Shown piece by piece: positions 131 through 49,735 of a stretch of 49,735 nucleotides of DNA; the stretch's first letter is position 1; every line of letters begins with the position of its first letter. The position numbers were made by a program, and so were the translations under genes. The DNA is from Clostridiales bacterium (GTDB lineage: Bacteria; Bacillota; Clostridia; Oscillospirales; Oscillospiraceae), in contig VSNB01000001.1 in NCBI GenBank assembly GCA_009774055.1, forward strand, positions 1 through 49,735, written 5' to 3'. The notes under the pieces are model-generated. The model was not told where the DNA came from and did no database searches. It worked only from the letters and a program-made list of their open reading frames with translations.

Positions 131-361
131 GCATATGGGATCTTAGAAGAGGTTGGCGCTGCGCTGCCTATTCCGCCGGTTGTGAAATTCTCTAAAAACA
201 GCCGAACAAAATTGTAGAACCACACAAAAAGCACAGGATGGAAAAATCTCTGTTGACAAATCGATGAGTTTGATATATCTTTTGTATAGAGTCAAGCAAT
301 TCTGACCGGTTATTTGTAAAATCAATAAATAAAAAGCCAACAATTGAATACTTCGGATGAA

Positions 362-530
362 CGGCTTAGGAGAGTCCGCGAAAGCGGCGCCGAAGGAGCA
401 ACTGCCATTCTCTCTCAGGTAAAAGGGACTGAGCCGGGACGAAAATCTGGAAAGCGCTGCGGCGCACCGACGGGGCAACCGGCGGTGGGATAGCCTCCTA
501 CGGGAATCTCTCAGGTTTTGATGAACAGAG
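362..530 (+). promoter_or_regulatory. Tandem glycine riboswitch (two aptamers)
   Basis: Aptamer 1: GGAGAG...GCCGAAGGAGCAA...CTCTCAGGTAAAAGGGACTGAG. Aptamer 2: GGAAAG...CACCGACGGGGCAA...CTCTCAGGTTTTGATGAACAGAG. Both match the conserved glycine-aptamer cores. The element sits directly upstream of gcvT. Confidence 0.9.
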
Positions 531-3592: not shown

Positions 3593-4518
3593 ATGTTTAT
3601 TGCTATTTATGGCAAAAAAATCTGGTATGAAATTTATGGCGCAGAATATCACGATACCCTGCTGTATCTTCATGGAGGCCCGGGAGCAAGCTGTCTGGAT
3701 TTCGTAAATCAGGCAAAAGCGTTAAGCGAGAAAATGAGGGTCGTCATATTGGACCAGTTAGGCGTACTGCGCTCCGAAGCGATTGCCGAGAATGAAAGCT
3801 ACAGCATGGAATACCAGATCGAAATGCTTGAGGAAATGCGAAAATCTCTGGGAATAGAAAAATGGAGTATCCTTGGCCATTCGTATGGCGGTATGCTTGC
3901 CGTGTTATACGCACACGCCTATCCAAATTCCATTCAAAAGATCATCCTGGAGTGCCCTTCGCTGTGGTTTGAGGATTCCGCAAGGGCAACCGCTGAATAT
4001 CTGAGCGAGCATATTCATAGCCTGAACAACCCGCAGGCAGTCAAACTGTGTGAAAAAATCAAATCTGCAGACTATCAGGATAAGGCGGAAGCGGTATGGG
4101 ATCTGTCCGCCCTGCTTGGCTATGTCACTGACATGGAGCTGCGGTTTTATCTGCACAGCATCTCTTTGGAAGAATATGAACGGAATATGGACACCTCTGA
4201 CATTGCAGATGAAATGTGGTCAAAGGGAGAGCGGCATTGATGAAGCTGCTGGAAACACAGCCGGCGCCGGCTGACTCTTTGCAAAAAAGGGTGATGATGA
4301 CCGACAATCTCTTGCCGCTGATCCCAAAGCTTACCGCTCCGATGCTGTTGATAAACGGAAGGTATGACCCTGCATGTACGAAGAATCAAATCGAGTATAT
4401 CATGAACCATGCGCAAAATGTGACACAGGCAATTTTTGAAGACAGCGGTCACTTTCCACGAATTGAAGAGGCTAAAAAATATACAAGCGTCATTTTGCGT
4501 TTCCTCGATCATGCGTAA
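3593..4518 (+). pseudogene. Alpha/beta hydrolase (proline iminopeptidase-like), split by a frameshift near 4216-4240
   Basis: ORF 3593-4240 carries HGGPGAS and the GHSYGG nucleophile elbow. ORF 4216-4518, in another frame, carries the C-terminal APMLLINGRYD...DSGHFP catalytic-His region. GC is clearly lower (about 40-45% by eye) than the flanks. Confidence 0.7.
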
Positions 4519-14679: not shown

Positions 14680-14815
14680 GACCATCTTCTTCCATCCAGA
14701 CTGTCACTGTCGGTACCGGAATCGCACCGGTTCAACGCATACAACGCGCTCGCGGACTGAGGCCTGCGCCATCACCGCCGGTGGGGACTTGCACCCCGCC
14801 CTGAAGATGAATGTT
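14680..14815 (-). promoter_or_regulatory. FMN (RFN) riboswitch
   Basis: The minus strand reads TCTTCAGGGCGGGGTGCAAGTCCCCACCGGCGGT...AACCGGTGCGATTCCGGTACCGACAGTGACAGTCTGGATGGAAGAAGATGG, matching the conserved RFN cores. Confidence 0.9.
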
Positions 14816-34094: not shown

Positions 34095-35324
34095 ATGGGA
34101 GAGAGAATAAAGCCGGAGCTCCTCGCCCCCGCCGGGGACATGGAGCGGCTGCGGATGGCGGTTTTGTACGGCGCGGACGCGGTGTACCTGGCGGGCGAGA
34201 GCTTCGGGATGCGCTCCTTCGCGGGAAACTTTTCCCCCGAGGAGCTGCCCCGGGCGGTGGACTTTGCCCACGCCCATGGCGTGCGGGTCCATGTGACCGT
34301 CAACACCATGCCCCGCTGCGGGGAGATCGAGGCTCTGCCGGCCTGGCTGGAGCTGCTAAGCGACGCGGGCGTGGACGCGCTGATCACGGCGGACCTGGGG
34401 ACCTTCACCCTGACGGGGAAGTACGCCCCCCGGTGCGAGCGTCACGTCTCCACCCAGGTGAGCGTAGCCAATCACGTCTCCGCCCGGGCCTGGTACGAGC
34501 TGGGGGCTAAGCGGGTGATCCTGGCCCGGGAGGTAAGCCTGGAGGAGATCCGGGAGATCCGTGCCAGGACGCCGGCGGAGCTGGAGCTGGAGGCCTTTGT
34601 CCACGGGGCCATGTGCGTCAGCTACAGCGGGCGGTGCCTGCTCTCCAACTATATGACCGGCCGGGACAGCAACCGTGGGGCCTGCGCCCAGCCCTGCCGG
34701 TATCAGTACTACCTCATGGAGGAAAAGCGGCCCGGAGAATATTTCCCCGTCTTTGAGGACGGGAAGGGAACCTACATCATGAATTCCCGGGACATGTGCA
34801 TGATCGACCACGTGGACGACCTCATAGACGCGGGCCTCAGCAGTCTGAAGATTGAAGGCCGGGCGAAGAGCGCCTATTACGCCGCCATTGTTACAGGGGC
34901 TTACCGGCATGTAATCGACGACGTGTTTGCCGGCCGGCCTGTCGATCCCGTCTGGCGGGACGAGGTGGAGAAGGTCAGCCACCGGCACTACGCCACGGGG
35001 TTCTATTACGGCCCGCCGGGGCAGTATTATGAAAATGCCCGGTATGTCCGGGAGTGGCAGGTGGTGGCTCTGGTCACCGCCTGTGACCAGAGCGGGCACG
35101 CTGAGCTGACTCTGCGGAATAAGTTTTCCGAGGGGGATACGCTGGAGGCTGTGGGCCCCGACATGAAGCCGTTTTCCTTCGTGGTGGAGGGGATTGAAGA
35201 TGGGGACGGCGTCCCCGTGGCCGAGCCCAAGACACCGCAGATGGCCCTGCGGGTCAGGCTGCCCAGGCCGGTCCCAGAGTGGAGTATTCTTCGGATTGCT
35301 CGGGACTTGTCTGCAAAATCATAG
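34095..35324 (+). CDS. Peptidase U32 family protein
   Basis: PELLAPAGD...GADAVYLAGESFGMR and EAFVHGAMCVSYSGRCLLS blocks typical of U32. Confidence 0.9.
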   Translation: MGERIKPELLAPAGDMERLRMAVLYGADAVYLAGESFGMRSFAGNFSPEELPRAVDFAHAHGVRVHVTVNTMPRCGEIEALPAWLELLSDAGVDALITADLGTFTLTGKYAPRCERHVSTQVSVANHVSARAWYELGAKRVILAREVSLEEIREIRARTPAELELEAFVHGAMCVSYSGRCLLSNYMTGRDSNRGACAQPCRYQYYLMEEKRPGEYFPVFEDGKGTYIMNSRDMCMIDHVDDLIDAGLSSLKIEGRAKSAYYAAIVTGAYRHVIDDVFAGRPVDPVWRDEVEKVSHRHYATGFYYGPPGQYYENARYVREWQVVALVTACDQSGHAELTLRNKFSEGDTLEAVGPDMKPFSFVVEGIEDGDGVPVAEPKTPQMALRVRLPRPVPEWSILRIARDLSAKS

Positions 35325-35325
35325 G

Positions 35326-35466
35326 CAGTTCTCTTCGCCGCCTTCGGCGGCGAACGGGAGATTCTTCTCGAATTGGCCCGGGGGCTGCGCGCCCCCGGAC
35401 TCCGCGCCTACTTTTGCCCCGCGGCAAAAGTAGGCAAAAACGCGCTTAAACCTACGGTTTAAGAAT
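35326..35466. repeat. Left hairpin array of a composite palindromic element
   Basis: Perfect hairpins at 35335-35355, 35379-35399, 35408-35433 and 35445-35463. The modules are homologous, in inverted orientation, to those at 35764-35934. Confidence 0.75.
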
Positions 35467-35763
35467 CCCTCATTATTACGTGGGGTAATTTGTTTTTGCG
35501 CTTCCACTGCAGTCCGTCCGGTCTGAACCGGACCGGCCCCCATGGATCGGGCGAAGCGTCTACCCGACGATGTTGTCGGCAGACCCTACCGTCTCACACG
35601 GGGGAGCTTCCGAAAAGATCCCCGGGAGATTCAGCATGTATGACGGTAGGCGCCGAAGTGTGCTCGTGGGTAGACGTAGAAATCCGGCACACCAACGAAG
35701 GCATCAAAACAGAACCATCAGGGTACGTCGGAGCGTAAATAATAACCCCCGTAATGGAGGAGG
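35467..35763. other. Core of the composite element: candidate structured ncRNA or MITE-like core (strand unknown)
   Basis: A terminal helix pairs 35467-35485 with 35746-35763. Nested 9-bp helices pair 35557-35565 with 35668-35676 and 35585-35593 with 35642-35650. A local hairpin lies at 35516-35533. No convincing ORF or RBS. Confidence 0.4.
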
Positions 35764-35934
35764 ATCCTTAAGGAACGTAGTTCCTTAAGCGATCTTTTGC
35801 TTCTTTTCGCTCGCGCGAAAAGAAGGCCCCTGCCCCGGCAGGGGCAAAGGTAAAATAAGAAAAGAGCGGAAGCGGCCCGCAGGGCCGCAGATGAAAGCCC
35901 CGCCGCCCCGCAGGGGCGGCAGAAAGGAGCCGCC
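35764..35934. repeat. Right hairpin array of the composite palindromic element
   Basis: Hairpins at 35767-35789, 35800-35825, 35827-35844, 35872-35888 and 35903-35919. About 94% identical over 70 nt to the reverse complement of 49666-49735. Confidence 0.75.
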
Positions 35935-45061: not shown

Positions 45062-45250
45062 CTTTTCAAGGAAATAAGGAGTGGTATACAGGTGCGCCCC
45101 TTGGGGCGTGACAGGGAAACAGGTGAAAATCCTGTGCAATGCCGTTGCTGTGTAAGCGGAGCGGACTCCATTTTGTGTCACTGGGACATCGTCCCGGGAA
45201 GGCCGGAGGACGCGCTGGACGCTTGAGCCAGAATACCTGCCTGTATATGA
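45062..45250 (+). promoter_or_regulatory. Cobalamin (B12) riboswitch
   Basis: ACAGGGAAACAGGTGAAAATCCTGTGC core, B12-box-like GTCACTGGGACATCGTCCCGGGAAGGCC, and closing GAGCCAGAATACCTGCC. Confidence 0.9.
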
Positions 45251-45312
45251 CGCACAAAAGTCTCCCCGTGCATTGGGAGGGTGCATGGCCGGCGAGGAAT
45301 CGCCGCGGTTTG

Positions 45313-46451: not shown

Positions 46452-49400
46452 ATGGGCGAGCTGACCATTCGCAGGAACAGGGGGTTTGCCGTACCTCCAT
46501 ATCAGGGGACAGCCAAGACGGAGAAGAAAGCAGCCGCCGGGCAGGCTCAGAGCGTATCCCGGACAACGGGCTTCGCCGTTTCGGAGACGCTGCGGCAGCT
46601 GATGAGCCGGGTCAGCCAGGCGGAGAACCAGTCCCGGGAGAGCCGCCGGACCCTCCAGACCGGCGAGGCGGTTTTGGACGAGGTGCAGGACCGGCTGGGC
46701 CGGCTGGCGGAGCTGGCTGAAAAGGCCGCCGGCGGCGGCGCGTCCGACCGCGCCGCGCTCCAGGCGGAGCTGGAACAGCTTCGCGGGGAGATCGACCGCA
46801 TGACTGGCGCGGCCTTGGCCGGCGATACGCCGCTATTCCTGGACGGAGAGCTGGGCGTGGAGGACGGCGGGGCCGCGCTGCTGGACGCCATCATGGGTGA
46901 GACGTCCGCCGCGGAGGAGAATGTCCGCTCCCTCCCCGACTGGCTCCTGAAGGGGATCGCCCAGGGGGACATTACGCCGGAGCGGCTGCTGGCCGCCCTG
47001 GGGCTGGACCAGACTGCCGCCGGTCCGGAGATCCTGGCCGCCATCCTGGGCCGGCCTCTGGATGGCAATTACACCGCAGGATATCTGGCGGCCCTCTATT
47101 TGGGGGCGGTGATCGCCGGCGGCTCAACGGACTCCATCGACCCGGAGCAGGCCATGGAGGGCCTGCGGCAGCTGCTGGAGAAGGTGGCGGAGGGCCTTAC
47201 GCCCGATGAGGCCATCGAGCAGCTGACAAACGGGGAGTTTACCAGTTTCGAGGATTTCCAGAACCAGTTCATCAGCGGCACGGCTCCGGGGCTCCAGGAT
47301 TTTCTTGTGGAACTTTTGCTGGGCGAGGGAGGCTCCCAGCTGCTGACCGGCCCTGCGCTTCTGGCGTATCTGGCGGGTCTGGAGGGGATGAACCTGGATC
47401 TGCTGATGAGCCTGCTGACCAATCTCCAGAGCGGGGAAACGTCGCTGGAGGCGGACGCGGCGGGCCTGGCGGAGCAGTCCGGGCCGGACGCCGCAGCCGG
47501 ACGCGCCTCCGTGTTGCAGCTGGGGAGCATGCAGGTGATGGGGGCAGACCTCTCCGGCGTCTCCTTTGACGCCGCCTCCGGCCTTCTGACCATCGGCGGT
47601 ACGGCGGATGTGACCGTCCAAGGGACGGGACAGGGCGGGCAGGCGATTCTGCTTACCGGCTCCGGCTCCGTCACTCTGCAGCAGGCGGATGTCTCCACCT
47701 TGACCATCGCCTCCCCTGATGCCCGGATTTTCAGCGCGGGCAGGACCGCGCTGGGAGAGGTGCGCCTGCAGACGGGCGCGGCCCTCACCCTGGGCGGAGG
47801 CGGACTGCTGTCCGTGGGCGGCTTCCGGGGCGACGGGACCAATGTTCTGCGCCTGTCCGGCGGTGCGGTAGTCCTGACGGAGAAGAACAGCCAGACCCTG
47901 GCGGAGCTGGGCATCCCCGTGCTGGTGGAGGGGCCCGTGTCCCTGGCGGCGCGGGCGTCCCGGGTACGGGACCCCGGCGGGCGGGCTCTGACGCCTATGG
48001 ACGTGGTGTGGAAGACCCTCCTTCCCGGCTTCAGCGCCGTCACGTCCCTGACACTGGACGGCAAACAAACGCGGCTGGCCCTCTCGGCCAGGGAGCTTCC
48101 CGACCCCATCCGCCTGTGGCTGGCTAAGGGGGACTCCTCCCACGGCTCTCCTATCCACGCCCTGACGGTGCGGGGCCGGGACGAGTTCGGGCGGCCCCGT
48201 ACCCGATACGCTTACCTCCTCTGGAACCAGCGGGAGGGCTCCTTCCAGGAAACAGCCATGTACCCCAACCCCTTCACCGTCACCGGCGGCGAAGAGGGCA
48301 CGGACTGGGTGTATGAGGAGGAGTCTCACACCCTCCGCATCCTGTCCAATCAAGTGACCGCCATTGCCGGCGGCGCCGGCACAGACGCGAACCAGACTCC
48401 CTTCAGCGGCCGGATCGCCCTGGCGGACGGCATCGGCGATGTGACGCTGACCCTGGGGGGCGTAGCCTGCCGGGTGTCCAGCGGCAGAGCCTTCTGCCTG
48501 GGACGGGAGAACCATGTAAAGCTGCTGCTCCAGAGCGGAAGCAGCAACCATTTCGAAAGCGGCGAGGGCTTCGCCGGCATTTCCCTGGGGGACGGCGCGT
48601 CCCTGGAGATCGACTGCGCCAAAACCGGCAGCACCCGTGACCCCGCAGGCGTCCTCACCGCCGCCGGCGGCGAGGGCGGCGCGGGCATCGGACGGGACAG
48701 CGACGCGGGCCGTGACCGGACCAGCCGCATCCTCATCCGGGGCGGCGTCATCACCGCCGTCGGGGCCGGCGGCGGCGCGGGCATCGGCGCGGGGAAGCGG
48801 AGCCCCATGGGGCCGGTGACCATCACCGGCGGCGCCGTCACCGCCACCGGCGGCAAGGGCGGCGCAGGCATCGGCGCGGCCCTGGGAGCCCGGGCGGGGG
48901 ACATCAGCATCCGGGGCGGCACGATAGCGGCGGAGGCCGCCTGCCACGCCGCAGCCATCGGCGCCGGCGTCCAGGGGGAGAGCGGAAACATCCTCATCAC
49001 CGGCACGGCGCGGATCATCAAGGCCCTGGGCGGCGACCCCGGGGCGGACATCGGGGCCTGCCTCCTGGGGGGCTGCGGGAAGGTGGACATCACCGGCGGC
49101 GCGGACATTGGCGGCGCGAAGCTCCGCCCCCGGTCGGGGGTTACCCTGCGGATGGGGGAGGAAACCGTGACCCTTCCCCAGTTCCGTCTCTCCGCCCGGA
49201 CCCTGTGCCTGGATAAAATATCCGTGTCCACCCGGGAGTCCGCCCGGATTGCCGCCATGACCATTGAGGCGGACCGCCGCTGGGTGTCCCGGGTCCAGTC
49301 GGCTTACGGCGCGCTGTATGGCCGCCTGGAGCAAAACGGCCTGCGCAGCGTCTACCAGTATATCAGCATCACCCGCGTCCCTGTGCGGGACGCCGCCTCG

Positions 49401-49511
49401 GCCGGCGCGCTGCTGGCAGATATGCGGCAGGCTATTCCTCTCCCTGCCTCCCAGGCTATGCAGATCCACAGCGGGCGGGGCATGGAGGATGTTCGCCAGC
49501 TGCTGCGGTAA
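46452..49511 (+). CDS. Giant flagellin-family protein with a large beta-helix-like central insert (1019 aa)
   Basis: The N-terminal segment QTGEAVLDEVQDRLGRLAELAEKAA...SDRAALQAELEQLRGEIDRM...LFLDG parallels flagellin N-terminal D1. The C-terminal SAYGALYGRLEQ...VRDAASAGALLADMRQ...VRQLLR parallels the flagellin C-terminus. The centre has repeated GG.GGAGIG turns. Confidence 0.75.
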   Translation: MGELTIRRNRGFAVPPYQGTAKTEKKAAAGQAQSVSRTTGFAVSETLRQLMSRVSQAENQSRESRRTLQTGEAVLDEVQDRLGRLAELAEKAAGGGASDRAALQAELEQLRGEIDRMTGAALAGDTPLFLDGELGVEDGGAALLDAIMGETSAAEENVRSLPDWLLKGIAQGDITPERLLAALGLDQTAAGPEILAAILGRPLDGNYTAGYLAALYLGAVIAGGSTDSIDPEQAMEGLRQLLEKVAEGLTPDEAIEQLTNGEFTSFEDFQNQFISGTAPGLQDFLVELLLGEGGSQLLTGPALLAYLAGLEGMNLDLLMSLLTNLQSGETSLEADAAGLAEQSGPDAAAGRASVLQLGSMQVMGADLSGVSFDAASGLLTIGGTADVTVQGTGQGGQAILLTGSGSVTLQQADVSTLTIASPDARIFSAGRTALGEVRLQTGAALTLGGGGLLSVGGFRGDGTNVLRLSGGAVVLTEKNSQTLAELGIPVLVEGPVSLAARASRVRDPGGRALTPMDVVWKTLLPGFSAVTSLTLDGKQTRLALSARELPDPIRLWLAKGDSSHGSPIHALTVRGRDEFGRPRTRYAYLLWNQREGSFQETAMYPNPFTVTGGEEGTDWVYEEESHTLRILSNQVTAIAGGAGTDANQTPFSGRIALADGIGDVTLTLGGVACRVSSGRAFCLGRENHVKLLLQSGSSNHFESGEGFAGISLGDGASLEIDCAKTGSTRDPAGVLTAAGGEGGAGIGRDSDAGRDRTSRILIRGGVITAVGAGGGAGIGAGKRSPMGPVTITGGAVTATGGKGGAGIGAALGARAGDISIRGGTIAAEAACHAAAIGAGVQGESGNILITGTARIIKALGGDPGADIGACLLGGCGKVDITGGADIGGAKLRPRSGVTLRMGEETVTLPQFRLSARTLCLDKISVSTRESARIAAMTIEADRRWVSRVQSAYGALYGRLEQNGLRSVYQYISITRVPVRDAASAGALLADMRQAIPLPASQAMQIHSGRGMEDVRQLLR

Positions 49512-49535: not shown

Positions 49536-49735
49536 AGGGTATACTAAACTGCGGCCCTGCGGGCCGCTCCGCTCTCTTCTTTCTTCGTCGAAGCGCGTTT
49601 CTTACCGCCCCTGCGGGGCGGCGGGGGCCCTCTTCTTATTTTACCTTTGCCGCCTCGACGGCGGCGGGGCCTTCTTTTCGCGCGAGCGAAAAGAAGCAAA
49701 AGGTCGCTCAAGGAACTACGTTCCTTGAGAATCCT
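49536..49735. repeat. Second hairpin array of the same mosaic family, cut by the window end
   Basis: Hairpins GCGGCCC-TGC-GGGCCGC, CCGCCCC-TGC-GGGGCGG, GCCGCC-TCGAC-GGCGGC, CTTCTTTTCG-CGCGAG-CGAAAAGAAG and CTCAAGGAAC-TAC-GTTCCTTGAG (49707-49729). The reverse complement aligns with 35761-35830. Confidence 0.75.

Follow-up and report, generated by a model that had tools for sequence, protein, structure and literature searches.

The window analyzed here is a stretch of 49,735 nucleotides from a Clostridiales bacterium of the family Oscillospiraceae (contig VSNB01000001.1, assembly GCA_009774055.1), and the element in question occupies 609 bp of it, from 35326 to 35934. These 609 bp separate the gene of a U32 peptidase (34095-35324, stop codon 35322-35324) from a gene of the endonuclease/exonuclease/phosphatase (EEP) family, which starts at TTG 35935 or ATG 35938, within the gene order yceG-U32-EEP. 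An initial annotation, made from the letters alone, had found no convincing open reading frame (ORF) in this gap, and our ORF check agreed, detecting only short ORFs that overlap hairpins. We consider it very likely that the 609 bp are one copy of an interspersed, non-coding, and roughly palindromic family of Oscillospiraceae DNA elements, which was inserted between the U32 and EEP genes. This reading is based on the repetition of the sequence, its insertion relative to related species, its modular anatomy, its compensated hairpins, and its cargo-carrying variants.

Four other assemblies contain orthologues of the EEP gene, 75-83% identical, in the gene order yceG-U32-EEP. There, the spacers between U32 and EEP measure only 30, 83, 130, and 145 nt, and all are devoid of the element. 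Because the orthologous junctions of related species are short and free of the element, the window copy represents an insertion. The 30-nt spacer (tga ggccgcagacagaaaggagcggaacccctc atg) retains the same ribosome-binding site (RBS) that follows the element in the window, where AAAGGAG (35923-35929) lies directly 3′ of the outermost hairpin of the right arm, with the start of the EEP gene coming next. A second pair of filled and empty sites was also found (L046:1131-1689, compared with L098 and L126), and many copies fill their gap exactly, from the stop codon of one gene to the RBS of the other.

The element is repeated within the window itself. A blastn search of the region against the window revealed the right arm of a second, reverse-oriented copy (49549-49735, minus strand), which stops at the window end and is 90% identical to the right arm of the first. 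The full second copy lies on the contig beyond the window (L001:13061-13773), between a gene with a flagellin N-terminal domain, coding for 1019 aa, and hisS. The arms of both copies align directly, with 83-87% identity. In the core of the second copy, the module that we term A has the opposite orientation and is found at the opposite end, beside the other arm, while another part is unrelated, which argues against one conserved RNA fold.

The family extends to many other genomes. A 25-mer of the arm (GGCAAAAGTARGCAAAAACGCGCTT) had at least 100 matches in contigs representing one genome per species, all in metagenome-assembled genomes (MAGs) of Oscillospiraceae, Oscillibacter, or "Clostridia"; the matches listed included more than 30 loci in MAG S10_Bin2 and more than 20 in MGBC162663. 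A 31-mer core pattern matched 28 metagenome contigs. A genome-wide scan with a two-anchor pattern of module A gave no match, and this pattern was probably too strict. When a spurious 74-aa ORF of the element was used as a protein query, it retrieved 22 database "proteins" that are in fact other copies, located at unrelated intergenic sites (SDF transporter; aminotransferase/2-hydroxyacid dehydrogenase; BlaI/CobS). Within one MAG, copies share 83-95% identity (median 89%), and contigs of several assemblies terminate inside the element, as repeats would predict. The count of copies that had been suggested in the initial annotation therefore yielded many, including the one at the window end: this is a family with dozens of copies per genome in Oscillospiraceae.

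Gene callers routinely predict ORFs within these elements (e.g., MPRGKSRRGVRGR..., from hairpins hp3/hp2). Such ORFs are artefacts of public protein collections that are useful for finding copies, and they include P0001-P0022, L008:4156-4323, and L012:3474-3758 and 4001-4336. As for the surroundings of the second copy, it lies directly downstream of the gene for the 1019-aa protein (46452-49511, plus strand), in which the N-terminal flagellin domain (PF00669) is the only domain and is followed by a long remainder rich in Gly, Ala, and Thr. The outermost hairpin of the element and a T-rich tract may act as the terminator of this gene. On the other side, hisS (13774) follows directly, with hairpin hp1 about 10 nt from its RBS. 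No T-box leader was detected at the hisS locus at the Rfam gathering score, and the promoter of hisS would have to be within or beyond the element.

Modular anatomy of the element

The whole 609 bp form one degenerate palindrome. In a global alignment of the window copy, the left half and the reverse complement of the right half are 75% identical over 263 nt, and the alignment score of 92 far exceeds that of shuffled sequences (19.6 ± 6.7, z about 11). Each half of the element is a diverged copy of the other in inverted orientation, and the right arm is an inverted left arm, near-exact in MAG S10_Bin2 and diverged in the species of the window. The initial annotation had described a core closed by a terminal helix with two nested long-range helices of 9 bp (35557-35565 with 35668-35676, and 35585-35593 with 35642-35650). 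These complementary sequences are present, but they do not outline an RNA architecture. Since the left half aligns with the inverted right half, the terminal helix and the nested helices are the remains of one inverted repeat of about 300 nt.

More than 100 copies revealed a constant order of parts, namely TCT, hairpin hp1, the spacer GTTTCTnnTCGAnnG, hp2, hp3, GCAAAAACGCG, hp4, and AATCCC..ATTACGGGGG, followed by a subterminal module. The arm thus defined measures about 140 nt and has four hairpins in fixed order, while the subterminal module measures 130-200 nt and exists in the types A, C, X, and Y. In the left arm of the window copy, the outermost GC hairpin, hp1 (35334-35354, TTCGCCGCC ttc GGCGGCGAA), lies 9 nt past the U32 stop codon and is preceded by the conserved TCT. 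The spacer between hp1 and hp2 (35355-35377) reads CGGGAGATTCTTCTCGAATTGGC in the window, the consensus given above being that of an outer-flank alignment of 112 arms. It is followed by hp2 (35378-35398, CCGGGGGC tgcgc GCCCCCGG) and by hp3 (35406-35435, GCCTACTTTTGCC ccgc GGCAAAAGTAGGC), whose perfect 13-bp stem forms, together with the adjoining GCAAAAACGCGCTT, the best-conserved signature of the family. The last hairpin of the arm is hp4 (35445-35463, minus strand, CTTAAACC tac GGTTTAAG), which continues into CGCGTTTTTG when read on the minus strand and is outward-facing and terminator-like.

Three modules make up the core. Module A (35464-35584), the subterminal module of the left half, is conserved in blocks across species and includes a local hairpin (about 35516-35533) as well as CGTCTACCC (35557-35565). 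Module B (35585-35650) is a central quasi-palindromic hairpin (CCTACCGTC ... GACGGTAGG) at which the two halves meet. Module C (35651-35766) is the diverged reverse-complement counterpart of A, with GGGTAGACG at 35668-35676 and the block CCGGCACACCAACGAAGG, and also occurs as L-C′ in L027. In the right arm, hp4′ (35767-35789, plus strand, CTTAAGGAAC gta GTTCCTTAAG, then CGATCTTTTG), again outward-facing and terminator-like, is followed by hp3′ (35800-35825, CTTCTTTTCGC tcgc GCGAAAAGAAG), which corresponds to hp3 in inverted and diverged form, and by hp2′ (35826-35845, GCCCCTGCC cc GGCAGGGGC). An extra GC hairpin (35873-35887, CGGCCC gca GGGCCG), whose place in the array differs in the second copy, precedes the outermost hairpin hp1′ (35902-35920, GCCGCCCC gca GGGGCGGC). 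All of the inverted repeats listed in the initial annotation are present, although several had been placed 1 nt off, such as hp1 at 35335-35355 and hp2 at 35379-35399.

Across left arms in general, the loop and 3′ stem of hp2 covary with the spacer just downstream as a direct repeat (e.g., 35386-35405), which reads CTCGCC...CTCGCC in some copies and CGCGCC...CGCGCC in others. This may be a subfamily linkage or an alternative pairing.

The copies are mosaics of these modules. The window copy is a cargo-less form whose A and C halves are fused at hairpin B in its centre. Among 48 A-B ends examined, 18-20 continue into mid-C-arm as in the window copy, 14 run into X′-arm, which is the second type of the window genome seen from the other side, and 6-8 enter protein-coding DNA, the remainder being truncated. 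The combinations of halves observed were A+C, A+X, X+A, and A+cargo+A. The core halves may face either way with respect to the arms, or lie apart from each other by about 0.6 kb of coding cargo. At orthologous sites of different species the arms are common and the cores differ, for which the simplest explanation is recombination between copies via the conserved arms, or reuse of the site.

The opposite orientation of module A in the two copies of this genome might suggest an invertible, phase-variable switch, in which a recombinase flips the core between the inverted repeats, and assemblies do often break inside the element. Such breaks are nonetheless expected of any repeat, and different half-types on near-equivalent arms explain the apparent inversion. 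Furthermore, the core has no promoter and no invertase lies nearby. A comparison of assemblies, rather than of reads, showed that orientation agrees per locus (L007, L008, and L011 with the window; L001, L002, and L003 with each other), and we rejected this explanation, to which we attach almost no probability.

Smaller units also contribute to the mosaic, and small extra hairpin modules were gained or lost between the fixed hairpins across copies. A second family of hairpin modules, about 45 nt in size and with long stems (GGGACGTCATTTAGCCGCC nnn GGCGTCTAAACGACCGTCCC and variants), occurs beside or inside the arms and seems to have been inserted independently. It was found in the left flanks of L022, L026, L050, L073, and L084, in the right arm of L014, and at L046:~1190-1230. 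In an otherwise intact type-2 copy, module X is interrupted by a decayed element of about 1 kb related to IS630/Tc1 (L018:2840-3866), recognizable by its motif PPYSPDLNPI, its ends tatagcaa.../...ttgctata, and its TA target; this insertion is absent from the neighbouring assemblies L016 and L017.

Hairpin arrays, folding, and transcription

The 609 nt are rich in hairpins. Of all perfect GC-rich hairpins in the window that reach 8 bp or more, numbering 18 against about 3 after mononucleotide shuffling, 5 are located here. These hairpins are maintained while their sequences change. At the hp1 site, 126 of 183 arms had a perfect hairpin with 7 bp or more, compared to 3 of 183 shuffled ones, and the stems were of 47 different kinds. 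One pair of hp2 is G-C in 52 and C-G in 48 of 110 arms. In hp4, pairs changed from A-U to G-C (10) or from C-G to A-U (13), and intermediates with a broken pair were nearly absent. Other copies have compensated variants of hp4, namely CTTAGACC/GGTCTAAG, CTTGAACC/GGTTCAAG, and CTTAGGAAAC/GTTTCCTAAG, and the copy that runs off the window shows hp4′ in the compensated form CTCAAGGAAC/GTTCCTTGAG. One hairpin of this second copy shows a two-sided change from CTTAAGG/CCTTAAG to CTCAAGG/CCTTGAG. The paired substitutions that the initial annotation had noticed between the homologous hairpins of the two arms are real, and they extend to more than 100 copies elsewhere.

The paired stems may reflect selection on DNA or RNA structure, or a templated correction of quasipalindromes. 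Template switching of this kind can keep stems perfect in the absence of selection. We also considered that hp1 might be a copy of the host target, created by a palindromic duplication. One comparison was suggestive (GGGGCGGCAG vs GGCCGCAG), but we rejected this origin, since a second did not fit and the left and right hp1 differ within a copy.

The folding of the region could also be taken to indicate a multi-copy gene for a structured RNA, as the initial annotation had proposed, in which a core of about 300 nt with nested helices would be flanked by terminators. The folding energies are indeed very low. The minimum free energy of the plus strand is -298 kcal/mol, against -222 ± 7 for dinucleotide shuffles (z -10.4), and that of the minus strand is -305 kcal/mol (z -13.7). 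Modules A and C hold blocks of strong cross-species conservation, hp4 and hp4′ face outward like terminators, and among the non-Watson-Crick cells of the arm stems G-U slightly exceeds A-C (21 vs 7), a sample too small to decide. On the other hand, the two strands fold equally well, as a DNA palindrome would. Because the core halves recombine freely, the long-range helices are absent from most members of the family. For 11 diverse cores, the RNAalifold consensus was weak (-25 kcal/mol over an alignment of 380 columns), and its 7 covarying pairs are all local. No family of Rfam 15 matched the region at the gathering threshold, only chance-level matches of up to 17 bits appeared at a relaxed E-value threshold, and 10 further loci with other variants gave no match at the gathering threshold. 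No promoter-like site was predicted in the region either. Collectively, these results favour a DNA repeat over a structured RNA gene; the discrete transcript of about 300 nt is a proposal that we retain only as very improbable. Elsewhere in the window, Rfam matches at the gathering score comprised a tandem glycine riboswitch (357-529, plus strand), an FMN riboswitch (14680-14812, minus strand), and a cobalamin riboswitch (45073-45258, plus strand).

Terminator-like sites are abundant in and around the element, with 10 in 1.2 kb against 1.4 expected. The description of the arms as terminator-like arrays applies to hp4 and hp4′, which together with their T-runs score as outward-facing intrinsic terminators, but not to most arm hairpins, which have no T-run. 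A host-domesticated array, kept to terminate or stabilize the transcripts of the neighbours and to block read-through, would account for these sites, for the exact filling of gaps between stop codon and RBS, and for hairpins that stay perfect despite a divergence of 5-17% among copies. Likewise, the two genes of the cargo cassettes described below would both read out into identical arm sequence. Against such an insulating role, related species need just 30 nt at the same junction, and the ordinary terminators of the window are of the A-run/stem/T-run type, unlike the hairpins of the element. Flanking genes show no bias in orientation (23 co-directional, 10 divergent, and 6 convergent pairs), and templated correction could by itself hold the stems perfect. 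We regard domestication as improbable.

Even so, an inserted element of this kind could affect its neighbours. Since its hairpins and terminator-like arrays lie between a stop codon and the next RBS, the element can split operons, here yceG-U32 from EEP. In the relatives where U32 and EEP are 30 nt apart, the two genes are presumably co-transcribed. In the window, hp4′ and its T-run (CGATCTTTTG) would end the yceG-U32 transcript before EEP, and hp1′ would be placed against the RBS of EEP, so that the arrays may act on transcription at this locus. The simplest expectation, which we infer from this layout, is that read-through into EEP is attenuated.

Gene-carrying copies and DUF6809

At least 12 longer copies, of about 0.8-1.8 kb and mostly 1.1-1.2 kb, represent the full-length form of the family and carry genes between their halves, most often a divergent pair coding for a helix-turn-helix (HTH) protein and a DUF6809 protein. 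These genes sit exactly at the point of module B. In the genome loci, 10 copies contain small HTH genes between inverted arms 0.6-1.6 kb apart. The HTH proteins are of the XRE type (73-99 aa, PF01381). In seven of the ten copies, the HTH gene is paired with a divergently transcribed gene for a DUF6809 protein of 79-89 aa (PF20648, 27.9-38.9 bits against a cut-off of 27), whereas L053, L070, and L091 have the HTH gene without DUF6809. One cargo copy adds a methyltransferase. In some cargo copies the single XRE-HTH gene is replaced by a tandem of two or three (L155:1938-2415; L091:3620-4309), and those of L091 are three 73-aa paralogues.

A search with one DUF6809 protein retrieved 90 clusters, 52-98% identical to it except for one outlier at 40%. 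Most of them derive from contigs of 0.5-1 kb, a pattern expected if assemblies break in flanking repeats. Two homologues with only 54-58% identity to the query, inserted in a pyrimidine operon, again lie between these arms, which nhmmer recognized with E values of 1e-30 and 1e-34. The presence of the same arms around such divergent homologues indicates that the cassette forms a unit with the arms, and the short copies without coding capacity seem to be derivatives that lack the cargo. This cargo copy (L158/L160:1911-3030) is located between a PyrR/UPRTase-like gene and HAD-pyrF-pyrD, the latter on the strand opposite to DUF6809. No remnants of cargo proteins were found by tblastn in the window copy or in the V1 and V2 copies, and the idea that the core is a decayed protein gene was rejected after tblastn with all cargo proteins was negative.

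Each cassette has its own palindromic operator beside a TTGTCAAG promoter, a layout typical of an autoregulated repressor, which the HTH protein would be. Hairpin hp3 was rejected as the operator of this XRE repressor: operators differ per cassette, hp3 is constant, and no operator resembles it. DUF6809 is predicted to be a four-helix protein (pLDDT, the predicted local distance difference test score, of 78). It had no relatives in the PDB by sequence search or Foldseek and no match in NCBIfam, PADLOC, or PHROGs, and Pfam lists it only as a domain of unknown function. A limited literature search retrieved no papers containing "DUF6809".

Mobility, related systems, and significance

We propose that the element is, or formerly was, mobile, and that it would be moved in trans by an enzyme encoded outside it. 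The lack of a target-site duplication, together with a terminal hairpin that is kept in structure and not in sequence, suggests that this enzyme probably recognizes folded single-stranded hairpin ends. Homologous recombination between the conserved arms would then shuffle cores among copies. A phage or plasmid origin was rejected, as neither the DNA of the element nor DUF6809 had a match in phage or plasmid collections, and two pattern scans of viral contigs gave no matches.

Several observations weigh against a mobile DNA element. Around some 40 complete copies, and likewise in both comparisons of filled with empty sites, we saw no target-site duplication, with boundaries that may be off by a few nt; the repeat GCAG (4 nt) at the window copy does not exceed chance. 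In about 1 Mb of loci, neither a transposase nor a recombinase was found flanked by the arms or adjacent to them, nor was a related autonomous insertion sequence (IS) with the same ends. A regex for the HUH...Y motif over 4090 ORFs from these loci, which belong to incomplete genomes, retrieved only antisense artefacts. With no transposase, recombinase, or HUH/Y1 ORF found, mobility is something that we infer rather than show. In addition, the filled and empty species differ, with flanking proteins about 80% identical and exact boundaries uncertain; the copies are fairly old (median identity of 89%), and occupied orthologous sites in several species could represent vertical inheritance. The near-perfect upkeep of hairpins suggests a host-level function or templated correction, and not plain junk. 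Finally, copy numbers come from fragmented MAGs and from an arm scan that gives lower bounds.

[quoted passage not shown] Like these, it is non-coding, shorter than 1 kb, and bounded by terminal inverted repeats, occurs in many intergenic copies, can fold into long hairpins, has terminator-like signals able to affect its neighbours, and is present or absent at orthologous sites. It differs in that its inverted repeat is about 300 nt long and a chain of perfect local hairpins, whereas those of MITEs are typically 15-40 bp. Neither a target-site duplication nor the transposase of a parent IS was seen, the sequence of the outermost hairpin varies, and in the longer relatives the place of a transposase is taken by a regulator cassette.

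The longer copies are reminiscent of mobile insertion cassettes (MICs) such as MIC231 of Bacillus cereus, in which passenger genes without a transposase lie between the same inverted ends as in short copies. This was the case in L031, L045, L046, L053, L062, L064, L070, L091, L105, L155, and L158. The ends of MIC231, however, are those of IS231, with a known transposase and target duplications, whereas neither a parent IS nor a duplication was seen here; moreover, the cargo of our element is nearly always the same small gene pair. We describe the element as MITE/MIC-like and its family as seemingly undescribed. It was not filed under a named family because no target duplication was seen and no parent transposase was identified. 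A limited literature search found no papers on MITE-like repeats of Oscillibacter or Oscillospiraceae.

Resemblances also exist with the repetitive extragenic palindromes (REP), which are combined into bacterial interspersed mosaic elements (BIMEs) or REPINs and associated with the tyrosine transposase RAYT. In this explanation, the GC hairpins would be REP-like units, which a RAYT (an IS200/IS605-like HUH Y1 enzyme) encoded elsewhere cuts and pastes in the form of single-stranded DNA, and the 609 bp would be a BIME-like mosaic or a giant REPIN. It is a mechanistic version of the inserted-element reading and not its opposite. Shared features are the extragenic position between stop codon and RBS, the GC-rich hairpins with compensated changes and variable sequence, the mosaic combinations with modules gained and lost, the inverted doublet organization, and the lack of target duplication. 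Nevertheless, neither a RAYT nor, as noted, a HUH...Y ORF was found in the available loci. The hairpins keep a fixed order within an arm of about 140 nt and are not free units of 20-40 nt, the size of known REP units, and the element as a whole is more than 10 times longer than such a unit. GC hairpins without T-runs are not scattered over the rest of the window, and no conserved GTAG-like tetranucleotide occurs at the foot of the hairpins. We know of no precedent for a unit of 550-1800 bp that carries genes. The REP/RAYT systems known best are those of Proteobacteria, while the host here belongs to the Firmicutes. We consider a REP-type origin unlikely. The RIME- and BIME-like intergenic mosaic elements of rhizobia and enterobacteria are likewise large intergenic palindromes of recombined modules, but they have no sequence relation to our element and differ from it in size, gene cassette, and host lineage.

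The mosaic character and the absence of the element from orthologous sites, together with its dispersal, uphold the suggestion of a non-autonomous BIME/MITE-like element in the initial annotation. A bolder and rather doubtful view is that the XRE-HTH/DUF6809 cassette with its hairpin-mosaic ends of about 300 nt constitutes a self-contained new mobile element, with the 609 bp of the window as its non-autonomous derivative. Such an element would spread without a recognizable transposase, via a recruited host enzyme acting on folded single-stranded hairpin ends. Alternatively, DUF6809, a four-helix protein without structural or sequence relatives, might be part of a new DNA-mobilizing activity.

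These findings have implications for the study of Oscillospiraceae, a family that is abundant in the gut and is known largely through fragmented MAGs. The repeat described here is a visible cause of this fragmentation, and its spurious ORFs populate protein databases as "hypothetical proteins". The family of elements also gives the uncharacterized DUF6809 a concrete context. As a bounded and repeated cassette for which neither a transposase nor a target duplication was found, it is of interest to research on mobile elements, which may ask how the cassette of a repressor and DUF6809 spreads.

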